From contig JAHILF010000053.1 in NCBI GenBank assembly GCA_018897105.1, positions 62,056 to 126,055 of the forward strand: a stretch of DNA of 64,000 bases, in the 5' to 3' direction. Under the pieces are notes generated by a model that saw only the letters and a program-made list of their open reading frames with translations, had not been told where the DNA came from and searched no databases. Positions 42,159 through 64,000 of this stretch are shown here, one piece after another. Position numbers and translations under genes: made by a program. The stretch is from Pseudomonadota bacterium. GTDB taxonomy: Bacteria; Desulfobacterota; Desulfobulbia; Desulfobulbales; SURF-16. Numbering within the stretch: the first letter of the stretch is position 1; every line of letters begins with the position of its first letter.

Positions 42159-42335
42159 GAGCCTCTTGCAAAATGAACGTCGTAGCGAGATCGAGAGAAA
42201 AACATTCTGTGAAAGAATGAGTTGTGAAATCGCCCGGAAGCATAGCAGTGCTACGTTGAGGACGATTTCACCAGGAAGACGCCGCACAGGATATTTTTAG
42301 CCGATCGGAGTAGATGTTCATTTTGCAAGAGGCTC
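42159..42335. mobile_element. 177-bp MITE
   Basis: Perfect 20-bp terminal inverted repeats GAGCCTCTTGCAAAATGAAC/GTTCATTTTGCAAGAGGCTC, with AAAG duplicated on both flanks (42155-42158, 42336-42339). It has no coding capacity. Confidence 0.85.
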
Positions 42336-42347
42336 AAAGGATACAAT

Positions 42348-44621: not shown

Positions 44622-46355
<1,734 letters not shown>

Positions 46356-46361
46356 CCGGAT

Positions 46362-46760: not shown

Positions 46761-46765
46761 GCGCC

Positions 46766-47071
46766 ATGACCAAGGAACAGAAGCCACACAAAGAACATCT
46801 GCCGGAAATTGTTGAAAAGAAATACGAGAAAAGGGAGCAGGCCCGGCAGGAAAGACAAAAGCCAATATTTTTCGGACTCGGCATGTTCGGCACCATCGGC
46901 TGGACCATTGCCGTGCCCACCGTTATCGGAACTTTCATCGGCCGCTGGCTTGACACACTCCACCTGATGGACAACCAGGTTTCCTGGACCCTCACGGGCA
47001 TGATCGGCGGCTTGTTTCTCGGGGCGGTGGCGGCCTGGCGCTGGGTTAAAAAAGAAAGCGGAACCCATTAG
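46766..47071 (+). CDS. atpQ: N-ATPase AtpQ (AtpZ/AtpI-like) protein
   Basis: GLGMFGTIGWTIAVP...GRWLD...SWTLT; two TM segments; position in the N-ATPase gene order. Confidence 0.85.
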   Translation: MTKEQKPHKEHLPEIVEKKYEKREQARQERQKPIFFGLGMFGTIGWTIAVPTVIGTFIGRWLDTLHLMDNQVSWTLTGMIGGLFLGAVAAWRWVKKESGTH

Positions 47072-47080
47072 GAGGGTCAC

Positions 47081-47383
47081 GTGCAGATTGACCGTTTGCT
47101 CATTCTTGCTGCCATGCTGGTGATCGGCTTTGCTGTCGGCCTTGTTTATTTCCAGGGGTTGTGGCTGACCTTAAGCAGATACAGCGGCCAAAAAAATCTC
47201 GGCAGCAAACTGCTGTTGAGTTTTCTCATCCGCCTGACCCTGGCCATTGGGATTTTTTATTACTCTATGCAGGACGACTGGCAGAGACTCATCCTGCTGC
47301 TCATCGGTTTTTTGATTGCCCGGCAGGTAATGATTCGCAGATTGCGGGAACCTGCCCCTGCGGCCAAACCCAATATGAATTAA
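47081..47383 (+). CDS. atpR: N-ATPase AtpR protein
   Basis: GLVYFQGLWLT...SFLIRL...GFLIAR; small membrane protein between atpQ and atpB. Confidence 0.85.
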   Translation: MQIDRLLILAAMLVIGFAVGLVYFQGLWLTLSRYSGQKNLGSKLLLSFLIRLTLAIGIFYYSMQDDWQRLILLLIGFLIARQVMIRRLREPAPAAKPNMN

Positions 47384-47387
47384 CGCC

Positions 47388-48086
47388 ATGAAATTTTCAC
47401 CTGACCAGTTTATCATCGTCGATTGGGGCTGGGGTAGCCTCAATGCCACCATTGTCTTCACCTGGTTGGAAATGGTCTTGCTGGTTGCCGGCTCCTGGCT
47501 GATCACCAGAAATTTGTCCAGCGATGTGACCATCAGCCGCTGGCAGAATATATTGGAAATTCTTGTTGCCGGCATCGCCAAACAGATCGAGGAAATCACC
47601 AGGCAAAAACCCGAACCTTTCCTGCCCTTTGTCGGCACCCTCTTCATCTTCATCCTGGTTTCCAACCTGCTGTCGGTTATTCCCTATTACCACCCGCCCA
47701 CCGCCTCTCTTTCCACCACCAGCGCCCTGGCCCTCTGTGTTTTTATCGCCGTGCCGGTATTTGGTCTGTCTTCGAGAAGTCTGGGCAGTTATCTCAGACA
47801 ATATATGGAACCGACATTTTTCATGCTGCCGTTCAATATCCTCGGCGACCTGTCCCGCACCCTGGCCCTGGCTGTCCGATTATATGGTAACGTCTTGAGC
47901 GGCTCGATAATCGGCTTTGTGCTTCTCCTCATCGTGCCGCTCTTTTTACCCGTTGTCATGAGCGCCCTGGGACTGTTGACCGGGACAATTCAGGCATATA
48001 TCTTTGCGCTGCTGGCCATGATCTACATCTCCTCAGTGTTGAAAAATGAAGAACTAGAATCATCATCCAACCGCAAAACAAAATGA
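47388..48086 (+). CDS. atpB: N-ATPase a subunit
   Basis: PPTASLSTT, MLPFNILGDLSRTLALAVRLYGN (essential Arg), IQAYIFALL. Confidence 0.95.
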   Translation: MKFSPDQFIIVDWGWGSLNATIVFTWLEMVLLVAGSWLITRNLSSDVTISRWQNILEILVAGIAKQIEEITRQKPEPFLPFVGTLFIFILVSNLLSVIPYYHPPTASLSTTSALALCVFIAVPVFGLSSRSLGSYLRQYMEPTFFMLPFNILGDLSRTLALAVRLYGNVLSGSIIGFVLLLIVPLFLPVVMSALGLLTGTIQAYIFALLAMIYISSVLKNEELESSSNRKTK

Positions 48087-48138
48087 GACTGCTGAAAATT
48101 TCACCACAATCCCGTCACACAAAATAAAAGGGGGAAAT

Positions 48139-48417
48139 ATGGATGCAATAGAGTTAATCGGTATGATGTCGGTGCTGGCAGCCGGCCTCTGCATGGGCAT
48201 CGGCGCCCTTGGTCCGGCCATCGGCGAAGGGATGGCGGCGGCCGCCGCCCTGCGTTCCATCGCACAGCAGCCGGATGAATCCGCGGCAATAACCCGCACT
48301 CTTTTCGTTGCCATGGCCATGATTGAGTCAACCGGCATCTACGCCTTTGTCATCGCCATTATCCTGATCTTTGCCAATCCCTTCTGGGAATACGCCATTA
48401 AACATGCTGCAGGTTAA
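48139..48417 (+). CDS. atpE: N-ATPase c subunit with a Na+-binding signature
   Basis: GALGPAIGEG in helix 1 and IESTGIY in helix 2. Confidence 0.95.
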   Translation: MDAIELIGMMSVLAAGLCMGIGALGPAIGEGMAAAAALRSIAQQPDESAAITRTLFVAMAMIESTGIYAFVIAIILIFANPFWEYAIKHAAG

Positions 48418-48420
48418 CCA

Positions 48421-49179
48421 ATGGGCATAGACTGGTTTACCTTCTGCGCCCAGATCATCAATTTCCTCATTCTGGTCTGGCTGCTGAAAAAAGTGCTCTA
48501 TCAACCCGTGTTGAACGCCATGGCAGAGCGGGAAGCAAAGATCGCCGCGCGGTTAAACGATGCCACAGAGCAGGCAGCCCAGGCAGAGCAGGAAAAAGGG
48601 AAATTTCTTGACCTGCAGCAGCAGCTCAAATCCTCTGCTGCCGCTGAAATGCAACGGGCAAAAAAGGAAGCTGACCTGTTCCGCGACGAACTGATTGCCT
48701 CGGTGCGCCGGGAGATAGAGCGGAACCGCAGCCAGTGGCTCGCCTCCCTTGCCAGGGAAAAGGAATCTTTTTTGAAAGAAACGAGCCTGACCATTGCCAG
48801 AGGCTTCCATAAACTGGCCAACAACACCCTGCGCGATCTGGCCGGCGAGGATCTTGAGCAAAGGGTACTTGCGGTTTTTCTCTCCGAACTCGGAAAACTC
48901 TCCCAAAAAGACAACGAACATATCAGCCGCCACATTACCGAGACCGGGGACGATGTCATCGTCACCAGCGCCTTTGCCCTCTCCTCTTCATTAAATAATG
49001 AAATCAACAGACGTCTTGGAGCCATGTGGGGGGGAAATCTGCATAGCCGGTTTCTGGTTGACGAGTCCCTGCTGGCCGGCATCCATATCGAGATTGCCGG
49101 CAAAAAAATAGAGTGGGACGCGGGTAACTATCTTGAAAAATTTGAACAGGAACTTGCTGCAAACCTTCACCTAAACTGA
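48421..49179 (+). CDS. atpF: N-ATPase b subunit with a delta-like C-terminal extension
   Basis: IDWFTFCAQIINFLILVWLL..LY.P, coiled coil, C-terminal LLAGIHIEI; no separate atpH gene. Confidence 0.9.
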   Translation: MGIDWFTFCAQIINFLILVWLLKKVLYQPVLNAMAEREAKIAARLNDATEQAAQAEQEKGKFLDLQQQLKSSAAAEMQRAKKEADLFRDELIASVRREIERNRSQWLASLAREKESFLKETSLTIARGFHKLANNTLRDLAGEDLEQRVLAVFLSELGKLSQKDNEHISRHITETGDDVIVTSAFALSSSLNNEINRRLGAMWGGNLHSRFLVDESLLAGIHIEIAGKKIEWDAGNYLEKFEQELAANLHLN

Positions 49180-49188
49180 TCTGACATT

Positions 49189-50709
49189 ATGCTGAAAGCA
49201 TCACTTGAAAAAACCCGTAACGCCCTTGAGCGTACTCTGGACTCCCATGAATTTTCCCTGCAAGCCGAGGATGTGGGCCGGATCATCTCGGTTTCCGGAC
49301 CGGTTGCCTATGCCAGTGGCTTAAACGGTGTTACCTCTGAAGAACTGGTGCAGGCTGAGGACGGCACCCTCGGCATTGTTGCCAGTCTGGACCCGGATAA
49401 GGTCGGCATCATTCTGCTGAGCACAGGCTATTCGCTCAAGGCCGGTCATGAGGTGAAACGGCTCGGCCGGGTGGCCGACGTGATGGTGGGAGAGGCACTG
49501 CTGGGCAGGGTGATCGACGCCACCGGCAAACCCCTTGATGAGAAGGGAACGATCCAGCATCTGGCAAGAAGTCCTCTGGAACACCCGGCCCCGGCAATTA
49601 TGGATCGTCTGCCGGTGGCAAGTCCACTGGAAACAGGTATCAAGGTCATTGACGCCCTGATTCCCATCGGCAAAGGGCAACGGGAGCTGATTCTCGGTGA
49701 CCGCCAGACAGGCAAAACATCCATCGCCCTTGACGCCATCGTCAACCAGAAGGACAAGGAGGTCATCTGCATCTATGCCGCCATCGGCCAACGGGAATCG
49801 GCTGTGGCCAAGGTGCTTCACGAGCTGAAAGAACATGGAGCGCTATCCTACACGGTGGTGGTGGTCTCAAGTGGCCAGGATGCACCGGGACTGCAGTACA
49901 TCACGCCCTACGCCGCCACCAGCATCGGCGAATATTTCATGTCCAGGGGCAAAAATGTCCTCATCGTTTATGATGATCTTACCCGCCACGCCCGTTCTTA
50001 TCGTGAGATATCTCTGCTGCTGGAGAGATCCCCGGGAAGAGAGGCTTATCCCGGCGATATCTTTTATATCCATTCCCGGCTGCTGGAAAGAGCAACCCAT
50101 CTTCGCCAGAACATGGGCGGCGGCAGCCTGACTGCTCTGCCCATTGTGGAAACCGAGGCGCAGAACCTCTCCGCCTATATTCCGACCAATATCATCTCCA
50201 TCACGGACGGTCAGATCTATCTCTCACCTGATCTCTTTTCCAAGGGCATGCTGCCCGCGGTTGATGTGGGAAAATCCGTGTCCAGGGTTGGCGGCAAGGC
50301 GCAGAAAGTTGCCTACCGGGATCTTGTCGGACAGATGCGTCTGTCCTATGCCCAGTTCGAGGAGCTTGAAACCTTTGCCCGTTTCGCCACAAGACTTGAT
50401 GATAATACCAAGAAAGCCCTGGAACGTGGCAAACGAGTAAGGGAAGTCCTGCGGCAGAGCAGATACTCCCCCTTGAAGGACTATGAACAGGTGGCGGTCA
50501 TGCTTGCCCTCACCGAAGGCCTGCTTGACGAAATTGAAGTCAAGGAAATCAAGGCGGCCGAGCAAAAAATTACGGAAAAAATATTCAGGGACCTCCCCCA
50601 CATCTGCCAAAAAATCCGACAGGGAGATAAACTGTCCGAAGATGAAAAAGCCGCCCTGCTCGCCTCCTGCAGACAGGCGGTTGCCCCCATTGCCGGCACC
50701 ATGGAATAG
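49189..50709 (+). CDS. atpA: N-ATPase alpha subunit
   Basis: [49 protein letters not shown]. Confidence 0.96.
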
Positions 50710-50715
50710 AACAGC

Positions 50716-51621
50716 ATGGAGACCTTACAGGATCTGGACAAAAGAATAACAACCACCACCAAGGTGCAGGGTATCGTCAAAAGCATGAAGACCCTGTCTG
50801 CCGTCAATATCCGTCAGTATGAACGGGCACTTGCCTCGTTGGACACCTTTGTCGAAGTCATCGAACTTGGCCTGCAGACGGTGCTCAAGGAAACGGCATT
50901 GCCGCGGCATGCTGCCGCATCGGATCAATTCCCCAGAGGGGTGATCATCTTCGGTTCCGATCAGGGTCTATGCGGCAGATTCAATGAACGTCTGGCCGAT
51001 TTTGTCAGACAGCAGCTTATCGGTATGAAAGTCACTGATTTCTCATCCCTCAAACTGATAGTCATCGGCGCACGGATTGCGGCCCGGCTTGAGGCGGGAG
51101 GTTTTATCATAGACAAACAGTTCTGGGTTCCAGGTTCCGTCAACGGCATTAACGCCAGTATTTATCAGGTGCTTCTCAGCTTGGAAGGCTGGCTTAAAGA
51201 ACACAAAATAGCCCAGGTTGATATCTTCCTTAACAGATATGAAAAATTAACTGCGGCCAGGCCCGATCACCAGGTTTTACTTCCAATTGATAACGACCAT
51301 CTGCGCGCTCTGCGCAAAAAAAAATGGCCGGGCAGGTCACTCCCCAGTTACCGGGTGCCGGCCGAGCAGCTTTTTTCCGGATTAATCCGCCAGTATCTGT
51401 TCGTCAATCTTTTCCGCAGTCAGGCCGAATCCCTGGCCAGTGAGCAGGCAAGCCGCCTGAGGTCTCTGCAGAATGCGGAAAAAAATATTGAAGAACATAT
51501 TGAGGAACTGCGGGGTGCATACAGGATAAAACGGCAGGCCACCATCACCTCGGAATTGCTGGACCTGGTTGCCGGATTCAAAGCAACCGTCAACTCCCAG
51601 CTCAAAACAACTGATCAGTAA
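50716..51621 (+). CDS. atpG: N-ATPase gamma subunit
   Basis: IVKSMKTLSA, GSDQGLCG.FN, SEQASRL, RQATITSELLD. Confidence 0.95.
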   Translation: METLQDLDKRITTTTKVQGIVKSMKTLSAVNIRQYERALASLDTFVEVIELGLQTVLKETALPRHAAASDQFPRGVIIFGSDQGLCGRFNERLADFVRQQLIGMKVTDFSSLKLIVIGARIAARLEAGGFIIDKQFWVPGSVNGINASIYQVLLSLEGWLKEHKIAQVDIFLNRYEKLTAARPDHQVLLPIDNDHLRALRKKKWPGRSLPSYRVPAEQLFSGLIRQYLFVNLFRSQAESLASEQASRLRSLQNAEKNIEEHIEELRGAYRIKRQATITSELLDLVAGFKATVNSQLKTTDQ

Positions 51622-52344
51622 TAATGATACGGGCCTGCAGCAACTCGTCTGCTTTATTCCCATTATTTGATCTGAAAATTTCTCTCGGCAAATATCCAAC
51701 CCAATCAATTAGTTATCAAAACAAAAGCAAGATAATTATTTGCAAATCCGCGACACTGATCCTTCCTCGTCTTACTTCCCATTATTTGATGTACCACAGA
51801 CAACATAACTCGCTGAGATATCGAAAAAATTAAAGTCGAAAAATGTGCCGGAAGGTAAAAAAAAACAATTTCACCACACTTTCTTGCAGCAAAAAAACAA
51901 TCGCATTCTGCTTTCTGCGACAATTTACCACACCGCAAATTTATCGCTAAGTAGTTATATTAGCGCGAGCAAAAATTGAGCATTCATTTTTTTACAAAAT
52001 CTGTTATAAATTTTGCTATAAAATGAATAACCAATTTTATTACTTTTTTTTAAAATAATAAAAATCTTGGTTAATTACTGCTTTCATTTTTTCTCAGAGC
52101 ATGTATATAAAAGAAAAAATAATTTCTTCATACTGAATGAAAGAAGAGAGAATTTATTTTTTTAGGGGCGATTTTTTTTATTAAAACAGACAACTCATAA
52201 TTTCTTAAAATACCGCAAAATTCATATTTGAACAGTGAATCACATCAGGGTCCGCCCCATTTGTCTAGGTGATCCCCGAAATTCACTTTTTTTATGTATT
52301 GTGCGGTGTTTGAACAAACAGAAACACATGATGAGGGAGGGATA

Positions 52345-53547
52345 ATGAAAAATCATTTAAGCAGATGTGTCTGCCTCTTTCTAATGATTTGGATGGTTTC
52401 AACACTGAATGCTCCATCCTTCATTTACGCGGCGGATGAAGAAGCATGTAGCGTATGCCACAAGTACCCGGGTTTGTCCCGGATTGATACCCAGACAGGC
52501 AAATCGCGCCTGTTTTACGTCAGTCAGGACATATACACCAATTCTGTTCATGGTAAGATTCTGTGCAGGAACTGCCATCTGAATCTTGATGTCATCCCCC
52601 ATACAGATGCAAAAAAAGTGGATTGTTCCACCAAATGCCACATCAAGGAACCATCCACGGACAAAGAATTCTCCCACGGCGGCATTTATGCTGAATTCAA
52701 TGTCAGTATCCATGGTCTATACACCCCGGAGATGACGAAAAAATGCACCGAGGATCTGCCGCAGTGCACAGACTGCCATGTAAACGCGGTTTATCAGCCT
52801 GTCAGCGACCTCACTACCATGAAGGCCGGCATTTCAGAAGACGCCTTGCGGCGCTGTCTTGGATGCCATGAGAACAAGGAGTGGACCAACCGCTTCTACC
52901 AGCATTTCGCCCACAGGATGCATCGATCAAAGACTGCTTTACAGACCGTTAAACTCTGTCTCGATTGCCATAAGGACGATAAGAAGATGGCTCGCCATGG
53001 GCTGACTGCCACGTCCAACTATAAGGATACCTTCCACTGGAAAGGCGTCTTGTATGGCGACCCGAATATGCCCGATTGCCTCAGTTGTCATGCCCCGGTA
53101 GGTTTTACGGTTCATTCTATGAAAACGGGGTCCGATCCTGCGTCATCGGTTAGTAAAAATAATCTGCAGAAGACCTGTGCCAATCTCAACGGTACACAGG
53201 TTTGTCATCCTAAAGCCACCGAGAAGTTTGCCACAGGTAAAATTCATCCGACAGGCTCCGGATTTGAAAAACAGGTTACCGAAAATGTTGAGGGTGAAGC
53301 CACTTTGAACGAAATGGAAAGCCTGCAGCAGGAAAGGCGTTTCCGTGACCTGAGCAGCATAACGGCCGAAGATGCTGACATCTCCAAGCTGAATGCACAG
53401 GAGCTTTTCCAACGGAAAGTCTACATAATTGTAAAATATGTGTATACTCTTTTGATCACTGTGGTGATTGGAGGAATGTTGGCACACCAGGTGCTTGATT
53501 TCATAAGAATACTCATAAACAAAAGCAGAAATAATCATCTGGGATAA
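52345..53547 (+). CDS. Membrane-anchored multiheme cytochrome c (6 CxxCH + CX3CH + CX8CH)
   Basis: Signal peptide after ATG 52345 (GGAGG). Motifs CSVCH, CRNCH, CSTKCH, CTDCH, CLGCH, CLDCH, CLSCH, CANLNGTQVCH. The C-terminal TM helix contains a His (GGMLAHQVLDF). Confidence 0.9.
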   Translation: MKNHLSRCVCLFLMIWMVSTLNAPSFIYAADEEACSVCHKYPGLSRIDTQTGKSRLFYVSQDIYTNSVHGKILCRNCHLNLDVIPHTDAKKVDCSTKCHIKEPSTDKEFSHGGIYAEFNVSIHGLYTPEMTKKCTEDLPQCTDCHVNAVYQPVSDLTTMKAGISEDALRRCLGCHENKEWTNRFYQHFAHRMHRSKTALQTVKLCLDCHKDDKKMARHGLTATSNYKDTFHWKGVLYGDPNMPDCLSCHAPVGFTVHSMKTGSDPASSVSKNNLQKTCANLNGTQVCHPKATEKFATGKIHPTGSGFEKQVTENVEGEATLNEMESLQQERRFRDLSSITAEDADISKLNAQELFQRKVYIIVKYVYTLLITVVIGGMLAHQVLDFIRILINKSRNNHLG

Positions 53548-53552
53548 CAACT

Positions 53553-55148
53553 ATGGACTCCGATAAAATAATTGGCAAAGATGGTGAGATGATGCATAAC
53601 AACGACAACCTCCCCAAGGAAATTGTAAGGCTGAATGGCTCAGAGCGCCTTCAGCATCTTATAACCTTTGTAACCTTCTTTATCCTGGTAATAACCGGAT
53701 ACATGCTCAAGATGCCTGAGGCATGGATTCTCAAGTTGGGAACATATGGAACTACCATATTTGACTACCGCGGACTTGTTCACAGGATAGCCGGCGTAAT
53801 CATGATTGTCGGTGGACTTGATCACATCCGCTACTGTATTTTCACCAAGGCCGGGCGGTCTTTCATGTTCGCCATGATTCCTACATTAAAAGATGTAACG
53901 GATATCATCGGCAATATGGCTTACTATTTTGGCCAACGTCCCGAACCGCCGGAATTTGAACGTTTCGATTACAGGGAAAAGGCTGAATATCTGGCACTTG
54001 TAGCCGGTACCATCATCATATCCGTGACCGGTATTTTCCTCTGGTCGGAAGTATACTGGAGTAAATTCGTACTTGATCTCTCGATTATGATTCACGGCAT
54101 GGAGGCCTGTCTGGCCACCATGGCCATTATCGTATGGCACTTTTATCAGGTTCACTTCAAACCCGGCCAGTTCCCCATGAGCAGAGTCTGGATAGATGGC
54201 AAGATGTCTAACCATCATCTGAAAATCGAACATGGCGCCATGTACAACCGCTTAGTTGCAGAAGGAAAACTCGCTCCGGTAGATGAACACGACCATCATG
54301 GCCATCACGGTCCGAAAACCGTCAAACAGGTCTTCGTCGAGATTATGACGTATTGTTCCATTCTTTTCTTTATGGGCGTGATGTTTTTACTTGGCAAGCT
54401 TCTTTATTTTCCACCGACCTATTCAGCCAAGGCCAAAACACCAAGCACCGGTTTTGATAGATTAATCCATAGTGGTGGGGATACGGCGAAGTATACCAGG
54501 CATTTCCACAACGTAGATGATACCGTGAATTTAAAGCTGGCGAACCCGCAATTCTGTGTGACCTGTCATGGCACCTTACCGCACAGCAAGGCTCCTGATA
54601 TCCGTTCTTTCCTTAACATGCATAGTTATTTTATGGCCTGTGAAGTTTGCCATGACCGTGAGGAAAATTTCTCCGGCAAATTCAACTACGTCTGGTTTGA
54701 CAACATGACGGATGAGAAGGTCGATAAAATTGAGGGCAGTAACGGCGTTTACGGGTCAAGACTCATCCCGGTCCTTGTATCAGACAGCAATAACGGCAAT
54801 GAAATTCGCCGCATGGATGAGGCTGAAGATCCCAACTTTATTAAATCCTACATTGCTCAGAAAGATATTCTGACTCCTGAGGAACAGGGTAAGGCAAAAG
54901 TAATCATCCATAAGAACATGGCAAAAAAACCAGTTCAATGTACGGAATGTCACAGTAGCAAACAACCTTATATCGATCTGGCACGGATAGGATATTCACA
55001 AAAACGTGCTGAGAGTCTTTATCGGACAGAGGTTGCTGATATGATTAATAGATACATGCAGTTCTATCTCCCGACCATGTTCGATCCCGATCTGATGAGA
55101 AAGCAGAAAATCAACGAACTGAAAATGGAGAATCGTTCCACTCAATAA
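53553..55148 (+). CDS. Cytochrome b (FdnI/HydC-like) domain fused to a triheme c domain
   Basis: ERLQH, HRIAG, RFDYREKAEY, IHGMEA..WHFY membrane helices, His-rich linker HDHHGHHG, then CVTCH, CEVCH and CTECH. Confidence 0.88.
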   Translation: MDSDKIIGKDGEMMHNNDNLPKEIVRLNGSERLQHLITFVTFFILVITGYMLKMPEAWILKLGTYGTTIFDYRGLVHRIAGVIMIVGGLDHIRYCIFTKAGRSFMFAMIPTLKDVTDIIGNMAYYFGQRPEPPEFERFDYREKAEYLALVAGTIIISVTGIFLWSEVYWSKFVLDLSIMIHGMEACLATMAIIVWHFYQVHFKPGQFPMSRVWIDGKMSNHHLKIEHGAMYNRLVAEGKLAPVDEHDHHGHHGPKTVKQVFVEIMTYCSILFFMGVMFLLGKLLYFPPTYSAKAKTPSTGFDRLIHSGGDTAKYTRHFHNVDDTVNLKLANPQFCVTCHGTLPHSKAPDIRSFLNMHSYFMACEVCHDREENFSGKFNYVWFDNMTDEKVDKIEGSNGVYGSRLIPVLVSDSNNGNEIRRMDEAEDPNFIKSYIAQKDILTPEEQGKAKVIIHKNMAKKPVQCTECHSSKQPYIDLARIGYSQKRAESLYRTEVADMINRYMQFYLPTMFDPDLMRKQKINELKMENRSTQ

Positions 55149-55155
55149 AGAGTAA

Positions 55156-56214
55156 TTGACTAGGACCATGCACCTTTGCCAACAACAACATTCTGTCGAT
55201 ATTCATTGTCACGTTGCCAGCTTAGCCGATCCGGCTCTGTTAAGCAGTCGAGCAGCTTCAGCTGGCAATAAAGACAGTAAAGGAAGACAGGATAGATACA
55301 ACCAAAGGTGCTGGTTGGTATTTTCCCTCCTTATTATATTGCTGATTTTCCCGGGCGCCATCTTTGCTCAAGATGGCGCTCCTCATATCGTCAAGTTCCA
55401 ACCTGTCCTGTCGATCTCAGGTTCAATGAAACTTCCCAGTGATGTTGCAGTTGACCAGAGCGGCAGGATATTCATTTTAGACGGCACAGCAGACATCGTC
55501 AGAGTATATTCCTCCAAGGGAGAACCAATATTTACCCTGGGAGGTGCCGGAATTCTCAAACAACCCCTTGGTATAGATGTTTCACCTGGGGGTGATGTGG
55601 TTGTGGCCGATTCAGGAAATCACCGCTTGGCATTCTTCCCCGCGGAAAATAAAACTCCCCATTACATTGATGTCCCCTCCTCTGTTGACGGCAACCCGAG
55701 CGATCCTACTGATGTCAATTTCGGACCTGACAACACATTTATTGTTGTGGACAACGATAATCACCGGGTTGTTTCACTCACCCGTTCCGGCAAAGTGGTC
55801 TGGACAACAGGGACAATGGGCCGTAATCCCGGTGAATTCCGTTTCCCTTTCCTGATGGATATTGATAGGTTGGGTAGGATCTATATTGTCGAGGCTATCA
55901 ATACACGGGTCCAGGTTCTTGAATCAAATGGTAAGTTTGCCCGTTTTATCGGCGAATGGGGTATTGAACCCGGTCAATTTTTCAGACCAAAGGGTGTGGT
56001 GGTAAACGACAAGAACGAGGTATTCGTCTCAGACAGTTATTTAGGAGTAATTCAGGTTTTCAAACGGGAAGGAGGGCTTATTGGGGTAATCGGAGACGGT
56101 CACGGCAAGATTACAAAATTCAAGACTCCGGTGGGGATGGCTATTTCCGGCAACCGTCTTATTGTCGTTGAAATGTTCAACAACAGGGTACTGATTCTGG
56201 AAAAACAGGATTAG
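55156..56214 (+). CDS. Secreted NHL-repeat beta-propeller protein
   Basis: Repeats PSDVAVDQSGRIFILD, PLGIDVSPGGDVVVAD, FRFPFLMDID, FFRPKGVVV..EVFVSD, FKTPVGMAI. The hydrophobic signal begins near LVFSLLIILL and the true start is uncertain. Confidence 0.9.
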   Translation: MTRTMHLCQQQHSVDIHCHVASLADPALLSSRAASAGNKDSKGRQDRYNQRCWLVFSLLIILLIFPGAIFAQDGAPHIVKFQPVLSISGSMKLPSDVAVDQSGRIFILDGTADIVRVYSSKGEPIFTLGGAGILKQPLGIDVSPGGDVVVADSGNHRLAFFPAENKTPHYIDVPSSVDGNPSDPTDVNFGPDNTFIVVDNDNHRVVSLTRSGKVVWTTGTMGRNPGEFRFPFLMDIDRLGRIYIVEAINTRVQVLESNGKFARFIGEWGIEPGQFFRPKGVVVNDKNEVFVSDSYLGVIQVFKREGGLIGVIGDGHGKITKFKTPVGMAISGNRLIVVEMFNNRVLILEKQD

Positions 56215-58964
56215 TGAAATTAATGCATCGGCTATCACCTTTAACATTTATTTTGATCCTTGCGGTTACACTTTTCCTGCCGCCGGTCACCGACGTGCAG
56301 GCTGCCGGAAATCTGACCCAGAATTCTGCCCGTGAATGTGCCATCTGCCACTTCAGATGGATTGATCAATTTCTCGAAGGTCATGGCACTGCCCTGGTAG
56401 AATATGAAAAAGAAGATATCGCCGGTGATGAAATGATCTGCTTCAGTTGCCATGACGGATCAACCGATGACTCGCGGAGGAAGGTATGGATACTGGACAG
56501 GCATAAAACCGATATGCTCCCTTCGGACAAAGTCAAAATTCCGAAGCTGTTTCCACTTTCTCAAGATGGTAAAGTCGTCTGCGCCACCTGTCACTCCGCG
56601 CACTCCGTTACCACGGATACCAGTATAGAACGCACCATCTTTCTGCGTATCTCCAATAAAGATTCCATAATGTGCGAGATGTGCCATGCCGCCCAGGCGG
56701 TCAAGGATTACAACCATCCCACCCATGAGGGTAAACGCCCTATACCAAATGAGCTCTATGCTGTAGGCGCGGTTCCATCTTCTACTGATCGCAACTTCGT
56801 GATTTGCGAAAGCTGCCATACTGCCCATGGCAGTGTGGAAAGAAATCTTCTTTTTGAAGTCAAGAAGCAATCAACCATCTGCACCCTCTGCCACCCGGGA
56901 GAGTACGATGCTCCCAATGCCCCGGTGAATAAGCAGGTCAATCACCCTCTACTGGTCGAGTTTAAACAAAATCCCAATGTCGGCGGAGTAAAGATTCAGT
57001 TGGGACCGAATAACAATCTCGAGTGTCTTTCGTGCCACAAGGTGCATCAGCATGAAAAGGGAAACAAAGCCCTGATAAAGAACAAAGAAGCACTCTGTCA
57101 GCTCTGTCATGCCGACAAGTCAGACAGATCCTCTGTTCCCGACTGGCAGAAAAGCAATCATCCGCTCTATGTCAAATACAAGCTTGATCCGGCAACCCAT
57201 GTGAAACTTGACGGCGGGCCGCAAAACACTGTTTACTGTTTCACCTGCCATAAGATACACCAGCACGAACCCGGCACCAAGGCCCTTGCCGCCCAGCGTG
57301 ATCCCCTCTGTGCAACATGCCATAAGGACCAGTATATGGTTGATGACACGGATCATGATCTCAGCATCACGGCAAAAGACGAGATCAATGTCCTCAAGCA
57401 AACCATAAAACAGACGGGAGTCTGTTCCGCCTGCCATATTCCTCACAAGGCCACCGGTCCGTATCTCTGGGCACGACAAGTAAAAGATCCAGCTTCACTG
57501 TCTTCACCGTCCAAACTCTGTCTCACCTGCCACAATGACAAGGGAACTGCAGCAAAAAAGACGGTGGGACGGTTTACCCATCCTGTTAATATTGCGATGA
57601 AAGAAGCGGATCAGTTGAAGGACCCGAAAACACTGCCGCTTTATACCATAACGGACGGCACCGAAGTGATGGAGTGTCATACCTGCCATGACCCGCACAG
57701 GTGGGACTCACAGAGCAGCAGGAAGGGCAAGGGCATCAATGATGAAGGTACTCCCTTCACCAGTTTTCTGAGGAAACGTTCCGGCACGGATAGCGCCCTC
57801 TGCGCGTCATGCCATGTGGAGCAGTATTATGTGGAAGGCACTGATCACGACCTCACCGTCACTGCGCCCAAAGAGAACAATATCGCTAAACAAACCGCCG
57901 GTCAATCAGGTGTCTGTTCACCCTGCCATGTGCCGCATCAGGCCAGCGGTCCCTATCTCTGGGCGAGAAAATTTGACAAAAAGCCAACCTCCCCGTCTTC
58001 CCTCTGTCTGAACTGTCACGTCAAAAAAGGACCGGCAGAGAAAAAGACCTTGGGACAGAACACCCATCCGGTGAACGTCAAGATAGAAGACCCCCTCAAT
58101 CTGACACTGCCTCTGCGTAAACTGTCCGACGGCACATCGGTTATGGAGTGCCATACCTGCCATGATCCGCATAAATGGAATTCCCAGATCAGCAAGAAGG
58201 GTAAGGGCTCCAACGTTGAGGGCAATGCTGACAGCAGTTTTCTCAGAAGCGCCAATCTGGAAAAACCGACTTTATGCGCCCAATGCCATCTCCGCAAAAG
58301 CTTTGTCACCGGAACCGATCATGACATGCGGGTAACAGCTCCCACATCACTGAACAAGAGCGGGAAGATGGCCAAGGAAGAGTCAGTCTGCTCTCCTTGC
58401 CATGCCGTTCATAATGCTACTGAGAAAATCCTGCTGTGGAATTACACTCTGGATGATGCCGGGCAGGACTTCATCGAGAAAGCCTGCAACGGTTGCCACT
58501 CCAAGAACGGGGCGGGAAAAGACAAGGTCATTTCTTCAGGTATACATCCGAAACAGTTCTATTTCGGCTATCATAAATCCTACCGGAATATCCTTCTATC
58601 CATCGGACCGGCGCCTGATCCCATTCCATTATATACTAAAGAAGGCACGAAGGCCGTTTCCGGGGAGATAACCTGTTCAACCTGCCATGATCCGCATATC
58701 TGGGACGCAAACGATGAAACCGCCGGGTCAGGGAAAATCATTGAGGGCACCGTTGTAAACAGTTTTCTCAGAAAGGGTGCAAGAAATGAATTGTGTTATG
58801 CGTGCCATGGCATTAAAACCCTTTTACTGTATAGATTTTACCATAACGCCAACGAGAAAAAGAGTATTTTAGGGATTTCGATGCCCTCCGCCGACCAAGT
58901 TGAGTCTGATACCCAAAGACAACCTGCCGGCGGCGAGGACAAAGAGAACAACGGGGTAAAATAA
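56214..58964 (+). CDS. 22-heme cytochrome c with doubled-CxxCH modules and three tandem OmcE-like tetraheme repeats
   Basis: 22 CxxCH counted in the translation, Sec signal peptide, three ~160-aa repeats each starting TDHD[LM]. Confidence 0.92.
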   Translation: MKLMHRLSPLTFILILAVTLFLPPVTDVQAAGNLTQNSARECAICHFRWIDQFLEGHGTALVEYEKEDIAGDEMICFSCHDGSTDDSRRKVWILDRHKTDMLPSDKVKIPKLFPLSQDGKVVCATCHSAHSVTTDTSIERTIFLRISNKDSIMCEMCHAAQAVKDYNHPTHEGKRPIPNELYAVGAVPSSTDRNFVICESCHTAHGSVERNLLFEVKKQSTICTLCHPGEYDAPNAPVNKQVNHPLLVEFKQNPNVGGVKIQLGPNNNLECLSCHKVHQHEKGNKALIKNKEALCQLCHADKSDRSSVPDWQKSNHPLYVKYKLDPATHVKLDGGPQNTVYCFTCHKIHQHEPGTKALAAQRDPLCATCHKDQYMVDDTDHDLSITAKDEINVLKQTIKQTGVCSACHIPHKATGPYLWARQVKDPASLSSPSKLCLTCHNDKGTAAKKTVGRFTHPVNIAMKEADQLKDPKTLPLYTITDGTEVMECHTCHDPHRWDSQSSRKGKGINDEGTPFTSFLRKRSGTDSALCASCHVEQYYVEGTDHDLTVTAPKENNIAKQTAGQSGVCSPCHVPHQASGPYLWARKFDKKPTSPSSLCLNCHVKKGPAEKKTLGQNTHPVNVKIEDPLNLTLPLRKLSDGTSVMECHTCHDPHKWNSQISKKGKGSNVEGNADSSFLRSANLEKPTLCAQCHLRKSFVTGTDHDMRVTAPTSLNKSGKMAKEESVCSPCHAVHNATEKILLWNYTLDDAGQDFIEKACNGCHSKNGAGKDKVISSGIHPKQFYFGYHKSYRNILLSIGPAPDPIPLYTKEGTKAVSGEITCSTCHDPHIWDANDETAGSGKIIEGTVVNSFLRKGARNELCYACHGIKTLLLYRFYHNANEKKSILGISMPSADQVESDTQRQPAGGEDKENNGVK

Positions 58965-58965
58965 A

Positions 58966-60579
58966 ATGGGCCGTTTCTGCATCGCATCGCTCTTTTTTCT
59001 GGCAGTAACACTCATATCTAGTTTTCCAACGGCAATTTCAGCTGAATCTGTAACCATTTCACCCGGCAGAGGATTGCACAGAACAAATGACGGCTTGACC
59101 ATCCCCTCCCCCCCTATTGAAACCATCGACAACCCCCATGTCATGGCCTGCAACAAATGCCATATTCAGGGTAAGGACGGCAAAACCCAAGAGACTCTGA
59201 TTACCGCTGACAGCATCAGTCTCTGCGAGATGTGCCATGCCGGAGCAAATCTTCACCCGCTGGGGATAGAGCCGATTAATCAGTTCGCCGGGCTGGATCA
59301 TTTCACCCTGCCCCTGGGTAATGGCATTTATCAGGGGAAAATTGTCTGCCTGACCTGTCATTACATACACCAGGATAAGTTTACCCCGTATCTTCTCAGA
59401 GGGGACAATACCTCACACCAGACTATCCGCAACAATTTATGCTCCATCTGTCATAAGGAACATTTTGCCGGCATTTCCCCGCATACTTCAGAAACCACAG
59501 CATGTGTTTTCTGTCATATCGCCACCCCGGAGAAAAGAAAGAATAAGGGGAAAATGGCCAAGGACGAAGTTGATGCCGTATGCTTCTTCTGCCACTGGTC
59601 GCTCAGAAAAAACCATTACAAGGATCTCGACCCGTTGCCGGACCCCCTTGTCCAGGAATTGATCGACCCATCAAGCAACCTGAAGCAGGGGCAGATGTAC
59701 TGTTTAAGCTGCCATATGCATCATGGAAAAGCTGCAGAAACCCATCTTATCACCAAGCAGTATCTCCAGCTTGCGGTGGTGTCCAGAAATATCAATCCCC
59801 ACTGGAAAAACCTGATGTGCATTTCCTGCCACAAGAGCGCTCCTTCAAAAGGAAATCCGAGTCTTCTCGGCAGTGGCGATCTCAACGAGCTCTGCAACCG
59901 TTGCCACAAGTCAGAGTTTGCCAGGGCTGATATTCATCCGGTGGGCATTATTCCCTCAAAACACGTGAAGATACCTCTGGACATGCCTCTGCAGAACGGG
60001 AAACTCTCCTGTGAGACCTGTCACCTGTCATCTCTACAGGAAAGTGCTCTGCATATCGATTCTATGGGCAAGGAAAATCCCAAATTCCTGCGTAGAAGCG
60101 GACTGTCGCGCAACGAATTCTGTTTTCTCTGCCACCGGCAGGAGACCTATCGTCGTTTGAATCCGCACCTGCAGGTTGACGAACATGGTCATATCAGGAA
60201 AGAAACGTGCCTTTTATGTCACGCCTCCCTGCCGGATATCTATCTTTTCGGCCCGGAAAATGTTATATTTATTGTTGCTGACCCCAATGAATACTGTATC
60301 GGCTGCCATCCGGGCTTCAGTGAGAATCATCCCGCCGGAGGCCGTCATCTGGTAAAACCTTCAGCAAAAATCTTAAAAGCGCTTGAAACCTCTGTACAAA
60401 GGATCGGCGTCGAGTTACCCTTGTATCAAGGCAAGGTGGTCTGCGCCACCTGCCATAATCCACACGATCTGGGGGTTATCAAATACCCTGCTTCGGCCGA
60501 AGGTTCGCAACGCAAAAACAAATTGAGGTTAATGCCCGGGATAACCCAGTGTACCGGCTGCCACTGGGATAAAGGATAG
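58966..60579 (+). CDS. 15-heme cytochrome c
   Basis: 15 CxxCH counted, signal peptide, repeated NPH..CxxCH..CxxCH..HP..CxxCH..LR..CxxCH modules. Confidence 0.92.
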   Translation: MGRFCIASLFFLAVTLISSFPTAISAESVTISPGRGLHRTNDGLTIPSPPIETIDNPHVMACNKCHIQGKDGKTQETLITADSISLCEMCHAGANLHPLGIEPINQFAGLDHFTLPLGNGIYQGKIVCLTCHYIHQDKFTPYLLRGDNTSHQTIRNNLCSICHKEHFAGISPHTSETTACVFCHIATPEKRKNKGKMAKDEVDAVCFFCHWSLRKNHYKDLDPLPDPLVQELIDPSSNLKQGQMYCLSCHMHHGKAAETHLITKQYLQLAVVSRNINPHWKNLMCISCHKSAPSKGNPSLLGSGDLNELCNRCHKSEFARADIHPVGIIPSKHVKIPLDMPLQNGKLSCETCHLSSLQESALHIDSMGKENPKFLRRSGLSRNEFCFLCHRQETYRRLNPHLQVDEHGHIRKETCLLCHASLPDIYLFGPENVIFIVADPNEYCIGCHPGFSENHPAGGRHLVKPSAKILKALETSVQRIGVELPLYQGKVVCATCHNPHDLGVIKYPASAEGSQRKNKLRLMPGITQCTGCHWDKG

Positions 60580-60598
60580 GAATTGCAGGAGAACGGGC

Positions 60599-61102
60599 AT
60601 GAAATCCCCCTCCGCTGTTAATCTACATATAACGACATTACCATTACTGATCATATCTATGTTCTTCATGGTGAGTGTAGCACCATGTCCCGCAGCAAAA
60701 GAGCCTCCCCCTGCCCTCTCAGTTTATGTTGGTTCCCTCTCCTGCCAGCCCTGCCACGAGAAGGAATATGCCAACTTCTCCATCTATGCAAAAAAAAGCA
60801 ACTCCTATAGAAGCATTGAAAGACTGCAGAAAGGTCTGAACGAACAAAACTTAAAGAAATGCTATTTCTGTCACACTACAGGCTATGGGAAACCGGGCGG
60901 CTTTATCAGCGTTGAAAAAACTCCTCTTTTGAAAAATGCCGGCTGTGAGGTTTGCCACGGCCCGGGGTCGATTCACATAGAGGACGCAAAACCTGAATCG
61001 ATCATTGGCCATCCGACCATACAGATCTGCGATCAGTGCCACACAAGCGAGATGATAAAGGCCTTCAAATTCAGGCCTCTCATTCATGGCGGAGGGCATT
61101 GA
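60599..61102 (+). CDS. Tetraheme cytochrome c554-like protein
   Basis: YVGSLSCQPCH, CYFCHTTG, GCEVCHGPGS, CDQCH; signal peptide. Confidence 0.88.
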   Translation: MKSPSAVNLHITTLPLLIISMFFMVSVAPCPAAKEPPPALSVYVGSLSCQPCHEKEYANFSIYAKKSNSYRSIERLQKGLNEQNLKKCYFCHTTGYGKPGGFISVEKTPLLKNAGCEVCHGPGSIHIEDAKPESIIGHPTIQICDQCHTSEMIKAFKFRPLIHGGGH

Positions 61103-61103
61103 T

Positions 61104-64000
61104 ATGATCAACCTGAATGGAATTATCAAAAAGATCCTTCATCTGGAAACCCTGCTCACCATCGGCGTCACCATCGTCATGGCCGGTGTCATCTATTTCA
61201 GCATCACCAATCAACGGGAGCATATCAGGGAAAGAATGACCACCTATGGCCAGGATATGAAATCATTGGCCTATGCGGGCATCAAACATCCCATGGCGCT
61301 GGGAGACAGCCCCTCGGTTGAAAAACAGCTGCTTGATATCGGCGATGAACTGGAGAACACGGAAATAGTCATCTGCGATTTTAACCAGCGCATTGTTTTT
61401 GCAACCAATAAAGATCGTATCGGGGCCGAGGTATCGACCTTTACCGGCAATCGGGCGACCCTGGCTGCCCTGAAAAATCTGCTGGAAACCGCCGTTCCCC
61501 CACGGATAAGCTATTTTGAAGAGGAGAAGGACGGCGTCAATTATCTGGTTACCATCCACAGCATTTATAATAACGAGGAATGCCATCACTGCCACGGCGA
61601 CTCACGCAAGGTTCTCGGCGGGCTGTTGACGAGACAATCCACTGATGCCACCTATCTGGCCATCGCCACCCTGCGGAATCATACCATTATAGCAAGCCTC
61701 ATCGGCATAGGCCTGCTGATTACCATCATCTATTTCCTGCTGGCCAGACTGGTGACCAAACCCATAACCGAGCTGGCCGCCAAGGCTGAAGAACTGGCCA
61801 AGGGGAATCTTTCCGTATCCGCCCCCGTTCATTCCTCGGACTCCATAGGTATCCTGGCCGGCAGCTTCAACAGCATGGTGAAAAGCATCAAAGATAAGAT
61901 TGAATATGCCAACAGCCTCAAAGAAGCCATTGCCGATCCGCTGGTTATCGTCGACACCAACATGGTTGTGACCTTTATTAACGGCTCATGCGCCAGATTA
62001 ACCGGATACAGCAAACAGGAAACCGAAGGAAAATTAACCTGCCGAGAGATATTAAAAAGCGATATCTGCTGCCAGGATGAGACCTGTGACGCTACCTGCC
62101 CCATCAAAAAATGTCTTGTCTCAGGAGAACCGGTCGAAGATATCAGAATCATCATCGAAAACAAAGAAGGTGCTCTCATTCCCGTCATGGCCAGTGCCAG
62201 CGCCCTGAAAGACGCCCAGGGCAATATCACGGGGGCGGTGCAGATATTCAGGGATATCAGTGATGTTCTCGAAGCTGAACGGCTGCGTTATATCCAGAGT
62301 ATCTCCGAAAGGGAGGAAGAGCAGCGCAAATATCTTGAGTTCAGGGCCGAGAATCTGCTCGTCATCCTGAAACAGGCCTCGGACGGCAATCTGCAGGCGC
62401 GGGCCGAGTACCATGAAAGCAATGAAGTCATGGACAAAATCGCCTGCCATACCAACCAGATGCTGGATAATCTGGAAAAAACGTACGAAAAAATTTCCTC
62501 CTTGAGCAAGGGACTGGAGCATGAGGTGGCGCACCGAACAGTCATGTTGCAGGAAAGAACCCTCATGCTGGAGCGGGCCATCAGAGACCTACGGGAACTC
62601 GACAGACTCAAGTCCGCCTTCCTGGCCAACATGTCCCATGAACTCAGAACCCCCATGAATTCCATCATCGGTTACACACAGCTGCTGCTGGACCGGATTG
62701 ACGGTGAAATAAACGAAGAACAGGAAAAGAGCTTGATGAAGGTAGAAAATAACGCCAAGCATCTCCTGCAATTAATCAACGACATCCTTGATATGTCGAA
62801 AATCGAATCAGGCAAAATAGAACTCGACATTCAAGAGACGGATTTCACCTCCATGCGAGACACCATCAGCACTTTTTTCCAACCGGTGTTGGATGCCAAG
62901 GGTCTCTACCTCTATTTTGATTTCGCCGATGATCTCCCTACCGTCTTCATTGATAAGGATAAAGTAAAACAAATATTTACCAATCTGGTGGGCAATGCCG
63001 TCAAATTTACCGACCATGGCGGCATCACCATTCACGCCAAACCATCGACCCTGGGCATTGCCCCTGATAAAGCCCCCTTGTTTGTCGAGATATGTGTGGA
63101 AGACAGCGGCATCGGCATAAAAAAAGATGATATGACAAAACTTTTTGACAAATTTACCCAGATAAACGTTTCCGCCAGCCGCCCCTATGAAGGAACCGGA
63201 CTTGGTCTCAGCATTGCCAGAGGCCTGGTGGTGCTGCACAAGGGAGTTATCTGGGTGGAGAGTGAATTCGGCAAGGGAAGCAGATTCTACTTTACCCTGC
63301 CGGCGCAAAAGAAGGTTATGGAAAAATCCAATGAACCTATCATAGAGCTGGCCATGGCGGAAAAACTGGCTGAATACTTTGAGAAACCTATCGATCTCTT
63401 TCTTAAGGAGCCATATTATCTCGGCAAACGGGTCAAATGCTGGGAATATGTCCATTGCGGGCAGACAAGCTGCCCCGCCTACGGCAATACGGAAAGACGC
63501 TGCTGGCTGATCTGCGGTGTTCACTGCAAAGGGGTTGAGGTGGCTAAATGGCCTGAAAAGGTGGAGTACTGCAAGACATGTGAAATCATCGAAAATCTCG
63601 TGGTCGGAGAATTTGCCCCGCATAAGAGGAAGGATGAGGACCTGGAAGCTAATGCAGCAGACAGAGGCATCAAAAAGACTATCCTCGTCATTGACGATAA
63701 CCCGGAGGTTATTGAACTGATCAGGAAAAATATCGGGGAGGACTATAACGTCTTAGGCCATTATACCGGTGAGGGCGCGGTTGAAAAGGCCAGGGAGATC
63801 AAGCCTGCGGCCATTACCCTGGATATCATGATGCCAGGCAAAGACGGCTGGGAGGTCCTGCAGGAATTAAAAAAAGATCCTGTTGTGCAGGATATTCCAG
63901 TTATCATCCTGTCCATTGTTGATGAAAAGAAAATAGGGTTTTCCCTGGGGGCGACCGAATATATGGTCAAACCGATTGACAAAAAAATACTGCTGCATAA
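61104..64000 (+). CDS. Hybrid sensor histidine kinase (periplasmic CxxCH, HAMP, Cys-rich PAS, HisKA, HATPase, CW-type Cys domain, REC); 3' end outside the window
   Basis: Not in the ORF track. One open frame from ATG 61104 contains ECHHCHG (61581), MSHELRTPMNSIIG (62631), NLVGNAVKFT, GTGLGL, CWEYVHC..CPAY..CWLICG (63438) and ILVIDD..LDIMMP..KP. Confidence 0.93.
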   Translation, partial: MINLNGIIKKILHLETLLTIGVTIVMAGVIYFSITNQREHIRERMTTYGQDMKSLAYAGIKHPMALGDSPSVEKQLLDIGDELENTEIVICDFNQRIVFATNKDRIGAEVSTFTGNRATLAALKNLLETAVPPRISYFEEEKDGVNYLVTIHSIYNNEECHHCHGDSRKVLGGLLTRQSTDATYLAIATLRNHTIIASLIGIGLLITIIYFLLARLVTKPITELAAKAEELAKGNLSVSAPVHSSDSIGILAGSFNSMVKSIKDKIEYANSLKEAIADPLVIVDTNMVVTFINGSCARLTGYSKQETEGKLTCREILKSDICCQDETCDATCPIKKCLVSGEPVEDIRIIIENKEGALIPVMASASALKDAQGNITGAVQIFRDISDVLEAERLRYIQSISEREEEQRKYLEFRAENLLVILKQASDGNLQARAEYHESNEVMDKIACHTNQMLDNLEKTYEKISSLSKGLEHEVAHRTVMLQERTLMLERAIRDLRELDRLKSAFLANMSHELRTPMNSIIGYTQLLLDRIDGEINEEQEKSLMKVENNAKHLLQLINDILDMSKIESGKIELDIQETDFTSMRDTISTFFQPVLDAKGLYLYFDFADDLPTVFIDKDKVKQIFTNLVGNAVKFTDHGGITIHAKPSTLGIAPDKAPLFVEICVEDSGIGIKKDDMTKLFDKFTQINVSASRPYEGTGLGLSIARGLVVLHKGVIWVESEFGKGSRFYFTLPAQKKVMEKSNEPIIELAMAEKLAEYFEKPIDLFLKEPYYLGKRVKCWEYVHCGQTSCPAYGNTERRCWLICGVHCKGVEVAKWPEKVEYCKTCEIIENLVVGEFAPHKRKDEDLEANAADRGIKKTILVIDDNPEVIELIRKNIGEDYNVLGHYTGEGAVEKAREIKPAAITLDIMMPGKDGWEVLQELKKDPVVQDIPVIILSIVDEKKIGFSLGATEYMVKPIDKKILLH

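Follow-up and report, generated by a model that had tools for sequence, protein, structure and literature searches.

How could electrons travel between the quinone pool and the exterior of a bacterium that carries a tight cluster of multihaem cytochrome genes, and how much of that way would the cluster itself provide? This question is raised by a locus at the end of a 64,000-nt stretch of DNA (the window, i.e., the whole stretch that was analysed) from a groundwater genome of the order Desulfobulbales (4.95 Mb in 177 contigs). The seven genes of interest, g1 to g7, all lie on the + strand. In the original prediction, the first six were taken for a complete and self-contained conduit from quinone to the outside. 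Our analysis points to a more limited role: with a rough probability of 0.6, the conserved core g1-g5 (hereafter the cassette) would be the quinone-to-periplasm, or inner, half of an extracellular electron-transfer route, with an outer-membrane part that is separately encoded and varies between hosts. The genes are the following:

52345-53547, + strand: g1, a 400-aa periplasmic octahaem cytochrome c with a Sec signal and a C-terminal transmembrane (TM) helix
53553-55148, + strand: g2, 531 aa, with the four TM helices of a dihaem cytochrome b, then a cytoplasmic loop rich in His, one more TM helix and three c haems in a periplasmic domain
55156-56214, + strand: g3, a six-bladed beta-propeller of NHL repeats, about 300-350 aa
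56214-58964, + strand: g4, a 916-aa cytochrome c with 22 haems and a Sec signal
58966-60579, + strand: g5, a 537-aa cytochrome c with 15 haems and a Sec signal
60599-61102, + strand: g6, a 167-aa tetrahaem cytochrome of the c554 family
61086-64000, + strand: g7, a hybrid sensor histidine kinase that leaves the window at its end

Six co-oriented, tightly spaced genes had been described, and the open reading frame (ORF) coordinates agree, with spacers of 5, 7, -1, 1 and 19 nt from g1 through g6 in order. The start of g1 is an ATG preceded by GGGAGGG, within a longer ORF that begins at 52294, and that of g3 is ambiguous (TTG 55156 or ATG 55168). g7 starts 17 nt inside g6, and the transcription unit therefore probably continues beyond 61102. 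The announced number of about 52 haem c sites, eight of them in g1, was also recovered. CxxCH motifs number 6 in g1, 3 in g2, none in g3, 22 in g4, 15 in g5 and 4 in g6, i.e., 50 in total, where 0.02 would be expected by chance in 2903 residues with the window's own Cys and His frequencies; two atypical sites in g1, CSTKCH (CX3CH) and C-X8-CH, bring the six genes to 52. Both atypical sites are kept in all orthologues, the second as C-X4-CH in the distant group described below. The presence of dsrAB in this Desulfobulbales genome, on a different contig from the window, supports the supposed sulfur-cycling Desulfobacterota host. Among public genomes, those closest to it carry the label Thermodesulfobacteriota or Desulfurivibrio sp., and 61 ORFs of the host genome have at least three CxxCH motifs.

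A synteny search across relatives had been proposed and was carried out, with loci fetched from species-representative genomes with the g2 orthologue alignment. The order g1-g2-g3-g4-g5 is kept in all 15 full-length loci, which come from 15 species-level genomes. Carriers are Desulfosediminicola flagellatus, Desulforhopalus sp. IMCC35007, Thermodesulfatator indicus, a Thermodesulfobacteriales metagenome-assembled genome (MAG) and MAGs of Desulfocapsa, Desulfobulbus and Desulfocapsaceae. Across these loci the haem motifs are nearly fixed (typically 6+1 in g1, 3 in g2 and 22 in g4), with g5 differing between orthologues at 10, 11 or 15, and the b subunit g2 is 51-97% identical. Five further genomes, unclassified or 'Pseudomonadota' MAGs (L020-L024), harbor a distant cassette at 32-39% identity with a 28-haem g4. 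In a sample of the order, the cassette was detected in 16 of 301 genomes belonging to three families, and within the window's family in the window's own genus only; this patchy distribution suggests an accessory, mobile trait. In a Desulforhopalus sp. MAG (L008:990-8219), a second, paralogous cassette just upstream of the orthologous one encodes cytochromes with 7, 6 and 18 haems, an NHL protein and, as separate products, a b subunit of 299 aa and an anchored trihaem protein of 318 aa. Literature searches yielded no published description of the cassette. Could the genes simply be a chance juxtaposition, or a decaying remnant whose products do not cooperate? The intact frames with spacers of 0-19 nt and overlaps, the gene order and haem counts kept across two classes and a distant group, and the g1-g2 gene fusions and exact transcript matches reported below make this hardly credible.

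Judged from their sequences, g1 and g2 most likely form one inner-membrane bc cytochrome, a split version of the CbcL/MtrH/MtoC type. g2 matches the FdnI/HydC-type cytochrome b family PF01292 (E = 1.4e-12), the formate dehydrogenase gamma model TIGR01583 (E = 1.7e-11) and, in the PDB, FdnI (1kqf_C, E = 1e-5). In contrast, g1, g4 and g5 match generic multihaem models alone in Pfam and NCBIfam, and sequence searches of the PDB with these three gave no significant match. Four FdnI-like helices, a His-rich cytoplasmic loop, a fifth helix and then the trihaem domain are predicted for g2, and in the alignment of its orthologues H35, H77, H91, H181, H196 and H201 are invariant, as are the three CxxCH motifs. 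The C-terminal TM helix of g1 carries an invariant His as well (VVIGGMxxHQ), and the helix motif Y..I..V.G.M..HQ..D is invariant even among orthologues at 38% identity. The next-closest relatives of g2 are proteins of 640-750 aa with 11-13 N-terminal haems and a C-terminal b domain 42-48% identical to g2. In the single-chain proteins P0053, P0058 and P0071, a helix VVIGGMxxHN precedes a b domain starting with R(L/M)NxxERxQH, and the end of g1 and the start of g2 (RLNxxERxQH) are collinear with this join of TM1 and b domain. The likeness to Geobacter CbcL, to which the original prediction had already pointed, is thereby borne out and sharpened, with the helix of g1 corresponding to TM1 of the CbcL architecture.

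Nature has also joined and divided these genes. In P0049 (898 aa) and P0050 (890 aa), g1 and g2 are naturally fused in one protein, trihaem tail included, and in L020-L024, as in the Desulforhopalus paralogue, the b subunit and an anchored trihaem protein are made from two genes instead of one g2. Such joining and splitting is good evidence for g1 and g2 working together in a single complex. In L020, L021, L022 and L024, a single codon separates the stop of the b subunit (TGA in L020; e.g. L020:10745-10753) from the in-frame ATG of the trihaem gene, an arrangement that suggests tight translational coupling and could reflect a recent fission, or read-through. In terms of family membership, g2 contains the FdnI/HydC-like dihaem b domain that characterizes CbcL, MtrH and MtoC, and the g1+g2 composite has their six TM helices (1+5) and an N-terminal multihaem domain within the family range of 3-23 CxxCH. 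Members of this family of bc-type quinol oxidases/quinone reductases, whose menaquinol oxidation is required for low-potential extracellular acceptors, are single polypeptides, however, and a stop codon and a 5-nt spacer lie between g1 and g2 in 15/15 orthologous loci. Because of this stop codon, we class g1+g2 as a split variant and not as a canonical CbcL member.

Beyond the membrane module, g4 begins with a 4-haem part, continues with three dihaem repeats and ends in three tandem tetrahaem repeats, each about 160 aa long, with mutual identities of 55, 34 and 32%. In an alignment of 50 sequences, 21 non-motif His are invariant for its 22 haems, and g4 therefore has the appearance of a pure bis-His electron wire, not of an enzyme. 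A role of g4 or g5 as a terminal reductase was likewise rejected, since essentially each g4 haem has a conserved distal His. g5 is weakly similar to g4, with one match to the g4 repeat profile. When the profile of the g4 tetrahaem repeats was compared with the PDB, the best match was OmcE (7tfs_A, E = 3.2e-9, 40 bits), collinear over four haem sites and the non-haem motifs, followed by D. soudanensis OmcE (9yuq_N, E = 4.4e-6); full-length g4 gave E = 0.015, which is not significant. The repeats may thus be distant relatives of OmcE, at the level of remote homology. An AlphaFold2 model of g4 reached a mean predicted local distance difference test score (pLDDT) of 68, with about 80-90 over residues 320-770.

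g3 matches the NHL family PF01436 (E = 2.3e-23) and also DUF5128, and it occupies the identical position in every orthologous locus. Its single N-terminal hydrophobic segment is a signal peptide or a signal anchor. That NHL propellers accompany cytochromes of extracellular electron transfer, as originally stated, agrees with the literature on OmcE and Uet-type clusters. g3, g4 and g5 carry Sec-type signals that lack a lipobox. With regard to expression, a groundwater metatranscriptome contained exact-match contigs for g3 (55949-56098) and g4 (57809-57997) and contigs about 90% identical to g1, g5 and g7, which is weak evidence that these genes are transcribed in situ.

Where, then, is the outer-membrane step? 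The conserved g1-g5 core lacks an outer-membrane barrel in 20/20 loci, and Pfam annotation of the 64-kb window recognised no outer-membrane barrel family among the remaining proteins, in line with the original prediction. A search of the rest of the genome for porins, which had been recommended, located two candidate systems:

Contig C79:14000-27800 (L085/L086), own genome: OmcE/Uet-type cluster
Contig C152:70300-82400 (L087/L088), own genome: second envelope cytochrome cluster

In the C79 cluster, a tetrahaem protein resembling OmcE (7tfs, E = 4e-15) is encoded along with a pair of NHL lipoproteins, a SurA-like peptidyl-prolyl isomerase (PPIase), 11- and 8-haem cytochromes and a 691-aa protein; more multihaem genes are present at C79:246-16132. 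The 691-aa protein belongs to no Pfam family. Its model (pLDDT 88.7 from a 62-sequence alignment) has more than 30 long beta-strands. In the PDB it matches MtrB of the Mtr complex best (6r2q_B, E = 9.5e-11), with LptD, the FimD usher and TonB-dependent receptors next, so that an MtrB-like barrel is confidently predicted from the model. A minimal OmcE cluster combines OmcE and a large barrel with cytochromes and two beta-propeller lipoproteins (PMC13712944), and the C79 gene set matches both this and the Uet cluster. On C152, a 26-haem lipoprotein, 16-haem and 5-haem cytochromes, an NHL protein, a PPIase and an LpoB-like lipoprotein are encoded together with a 678-aa barrel candidate without family.

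In some carriers, such genes stand beside the cassette. In L020, L022 and L024, the stretch immediately upstream of the distant cassette has homologues of the C152 26-haem protein; its gene set encodes a PPIase, a 25-haem lipoprotein and a 16-haem cytochrome. In Desulforhopalus and Desulfosediminicola (L008, L010, L001), an OmcE homologue (7tfs, E = 1.6e-23) flanks the cassette directly, along with an NHL lipoprotein, a tetrahaem lipoprotein and a barrel candidate of 674-704 aa. The family of this barrel was not detected in the window's genome by genome search; between the Desulforhopalus barrel and the C79 barrel there is a weak BLAST link (E = 5e-10 in a small database). The words 'complete' and 'self-contained' are therefore not supported: the core never has an outer-membrane component, g3-g5 have no lipobox, and the MtrB-like barrel is on C79. 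The fallback of the original prediction, an export route encoded elsewhere, is the better reading, given the predicted C79 barrel and the OmcE-like cytochromes. The original prediction is supported in part.

A self-contained conduit would nevertheless be conceivable if g4 and/or g5 were themselves exported, by type II secretion, a pilus-type or another route, and formed the extracellular end. OmcE-type nanowire cytochromes also bear plain Sec signals, and g4 has OmcE-like units; the genome has two secretins and the window an ATPase of the type II secretion/type IV pilus type; and the variable haem number of g5 (10-15) resembles that reported for extracellular PCC3 cytochromes. Yet no export gene is conserved with the cassette, and the literature favours barrel-mounted secretion of OmcE/OmcS, with such barrels lying outside the cassette. 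That g4 or g5 leave the periplasm themselves is possible but unsupported, and we regard the conduit built on this idea as quite improbable.

Several observations weigh against the view that the cassette is the inner half of an extracellular route. As noted, g3-g5 lack a lipobox, and they show no other outer-membrane targeting feature. The likeness to CbcL rests on metagenomic proteins of CbcL architecture and on published descriptions, not on the sequence of GSU0274. The similarity of g4 to OmcE is weak and partly driven by the haem motifs, the N-terminal third of the g4 model is of low confidence, and a Foldseek search of this model against the PDB returned no match, which leaves the OmcE relation of g4 without structural support. 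The transcript evidence consists of a few short contigs and might include DNA carry-over. An OmcE-like gene occurs in 7/16 cassette-bearing genomes of the order sample, and the Desulforhopalus-type barrel family in 4/12 cassette-bearing genomes. OmcE is enriched among cassette carriers (p = 0.009), but without the window's genus the figures are 2/10 vs 43/282 (p = 0.66); the enrichment is due to the window's own genus, and co-occurrence with OmcE was therefore dropped as an argument. 

The main alternative is a purely periplasmic function, in which the CbcL-type module and its 37-41 soluble haems would distribute or store electrons (a 'capacitor') between the quinones and periplasmic enzymes for soluble substrates such as sulfur intermediates, nitrite or H2/formate, with no link to the exterior. 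Such a function would fit a conserved core that has neither an outer-membrane component nor lipoprotein signals, the lack of an OmcE-like gene in more than half of the cassette-bearing genomes of the order sample, and the position of the T. indicus cassette a few kb from dsrAB-dsrD. It would also fit the physiology of the cultured carriers, which are familiar as reducers of sulfate or disproportionators of sulfur and not as metal reducers. However, no periplasmic reductase or oxidase gene is conserved beside the cassette, and g4, with all its haems apparently bis-His, would not be catalytic. Furthermore, the recurring neighbours are sets for extracellular electron transfer (OmcE, barrels, giant lipoprotein cytochromes, PPIase), and a linear 22-haem protein would be costly for diffusible substrates. 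We consider a purely periplasmic role unlikely, although a serious alternative, and continue to prefer the inner half of an extracellular route.

From the gene content, homologies, fusions, synteny and predicted topology, we infer a complex, an electron path and a link to outer-membrane systems as follows, by which the cassette would couple the menaquinone pool to a long series of c haems in the periplasm. The octahaem domain of g1 would be held by its C-terminal helix, the equivalent of CbcL TM1, and g2 would supply TM2-TM6 with an FdnI-like dihaem b site for quinol/quinone and, behind TM6, the trihaem domain on the periplasmic side. The b haems would exchange electrons with the 11 c haems that g1+g2 tether to the membrane, and the path would lead on along the soluble, all-bis-His g4 (22 haems) and g5 (10-15 haems), with the g3 NHL propeller as a scaffold or assembly factor. 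The outer membrane would be crossed by separate barrel/cytochrome systems, here the C79 OmcE/Uet-type cluster and the C152 26-haem lipoprotein cluster. Flow might be directed outward, through quinol oxidation, or inward, through quinone reduction that feeds sulfate reduction; by analogy with CbcBA in syntrophic sulfate reducers, inward flow is as plausible as outward flow in a host bearing dsrAB. It is tempting to speculate further that g4 is a concatenated OmcE-type 'stalk', linked via g1/g2 to the quinones and reaching the barrel to seed or dock an OmcE filament. This is rather a long shot. If true, an unbroken haem chain would run from menaquinol to a micrometre-long wire, and the stalk would be the periplasmic link or anchor that the nanowire literature still seeks.

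The genes g6 and g7 are not part of the cassette. g6 matches the c554 family PF13435 (E = 2.9e-18) and was found, besides the window, only in L005, L006 and L015, i.e., in the window's genus; g7 is likewise restricted to the nearest relatives. The domains of g7 are a periplasmic domain with one CxxCH, HAMP, PAS, HisKA, HATPase and a receiver, and it is probably a redox sensor for the operon. It is plausible that g6 and g7 together are a genus-specific, haem-based redox-sensing add-on that controls the cassette. In T. indicus, an OmpR-type two-component pair is located upstream of the cassette instead. The window has one further feature next to g1:

51625-52344, + strand: non-coding region upstream of g1, 720 nt, AT-rich

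This region is probably a promoter/regulatory region. Within it, a block of about 350 nt (~51900-52290) shows runs of 95-100% identity in an alignment with L015, L005 and L006, and it is better conserved than the flanking proteins (75-97% identical). An Rfam search with the block gave no credible family match, and consensus scans for promoters and terminators did not rise above chance or shuffled sequence. Regulatory sites might be densely packed in this block, or it might encode a small RNA or leader that has yet to be described.

Directly upstream of the cluster, at 44682-51621 of the window, lies an operon for an N-type (atypical F-type) ATPase with AtpR (PF12966), in the order beta...AtpR-a-c-b-alpha-gamma, and this adjacency is kept in the nearest relatives (atpG in L005, L006 and L015). 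On the - strand, 1532-3748 encodes a type II/IV secretion ATPase with an MshEN domain (binding cyclic di-GMP) and a C-terminal cyclic-nucleotide-binding domain, and 28299-31344 two adjacent predicted secreted proteins of 605 and 355 aa without Pfam family. Several GGDEF/EAL genes and a chemotaxis cluster (33738-44621) are located between the secretion ATPase and the cytochrome operon.

To our knowledge, the path by which electrons leave the quinone pool and reach outer-membrane conduits or cytochrome filaments is understood in detail only for Shewanella (CymA) and in part for Geobacter (ImcH, CbcL and CbcBA plus small soluble cytochromes). The cassette suggests a different, hard-wired solution, in which giant linear cytochromes that might span the periplasm are permanently coupled to a module of the CbcL type. 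Its carriers are sulfate-reducing or sulfur-disproportionating lineages (Desulfobulbales, Thermodesulfatator) in which exchange of electrons with minerals, corroding metal or other species is suspected. Since it is carried by several cultured strains, among them Desulfosediminicola flagellatus IMCC35005, Desulforhopalus sp. IMCC35007, Thermodesulfatator indicus DSM 15286 and Desulfolithobacter dissulfuricans, the cassette is open to experiment, and the conserved b subunit (51-97% identity) offers a practical marker gene for environmental surveys.

Among known systems, CbcL (GSU0274), MtrH and MtoC are closest to g1+g2: they have an N-terminal periplasmic multihaem domain, followed by a six-TM dihaem cytochrome b of the HydC/FdnI type (Zacharoff 2016; PMC6295460). 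Geobacter CbcL has nine N-terminal haems and six TM helices, with a single His in each of TM1-3 and a pair in TM5 (PMC6295460), a pattern that agrees with the 1+5 helix layout of g1+g2. Genes of this family are often associated with other cytochrome genes, as are g1 and g2. Unlike CbcL, however, the module is split after TM1, g1 has CX3CH and CX8CH sites, g2 has a trihaem c domain added after TM6, and the module is locked into an operon that also encodes an NHL propeller and cytochromes of 22 and 15 haems.

CbcBA of G. sulfurreducens was considered as a second relative. It shares with g1+g2 the two-subunit form and the multihaem c subunit anchored by a C-terminal TM helix; the His of this anchor helix is proposed to help bind a b haem, and the partner is a separate four-helix b subunit. 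CbcBA is regulated and is thought to be reversible in syntrophic sulfate reducers, and CbcB and CbcL share no sequence homology (Joshi, Chan & Bond 2021). Membership of g1+g2 in CbcBA was rejected: g2 groups with b domains of the CbcL/FdnI type and, unlike in CbcBA, has an extra TM helix and a trihaem domain, and a sigma-54/BccR context is missing.

In the remote profile match to OmcE (7tfs; 9yuq), the g4 repeats align collinearly over the motifs HDL...CxxCHxPHNA...LW, lPL...CxxCH and FLR...CxxCH. Each g4 unit has four haems and four extra His, where an OmcE-type unit of about 200 aa would have four CxxCH and four or five distal His. Unlike OmcE, a stand-alone subunit that polymerises and is encoded with a barrel and propeller lipoproteins, the g4 units are covalently concatenated in one chain of 916 aa and 22 haems, in a window where no barrel was recognised. 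OmcE clusters also hold beta-propellers, multihaem cytochromes and a large barrel; the g3 propeller, in contrast, shows no lipobox, and most carriers of the cassette have no OmcE gene at all.

In D. ferrophilus (DFE_0448-0451/DFE_0461-0465) and in the Uet cluster of Ca. Tenderia electrophaga, for which electron uptake is proposed, cytochromes are interleaved with NHL propellers that are viewed as complex stabilisers. Compared by description, the cassette resembles these clusters in its mixture of multihaem cytochromes and an NHL propeller. A cytochrome b/quinone module is absent from them as described, and PPIase, lipoproteins and barrels are encoded in or next to them. C79 and C152 come closer to these clusters than the cassette does. 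Porin-cytochrome conduits (MtrCAB/Pcc/Uet/PCC3) contain a barrel in the cluster and an outer-surface lipoprotein cytochrome. The cassette has neither, g4 and g5 being without a lipobox Cys. PCC3, also compared by description, has its porin in the cluster, and its hosts (Sideroxydans/Gallionellaceae) are aerobic iron oxidisers (He 2017; Hoover 2023). The parts of the cassette are of known kinds, and what is new, as far as we found, is the fixed combination of five genes, the split CbcL with an added trihaem domain and the concatenation of OmcE-like units in g4.

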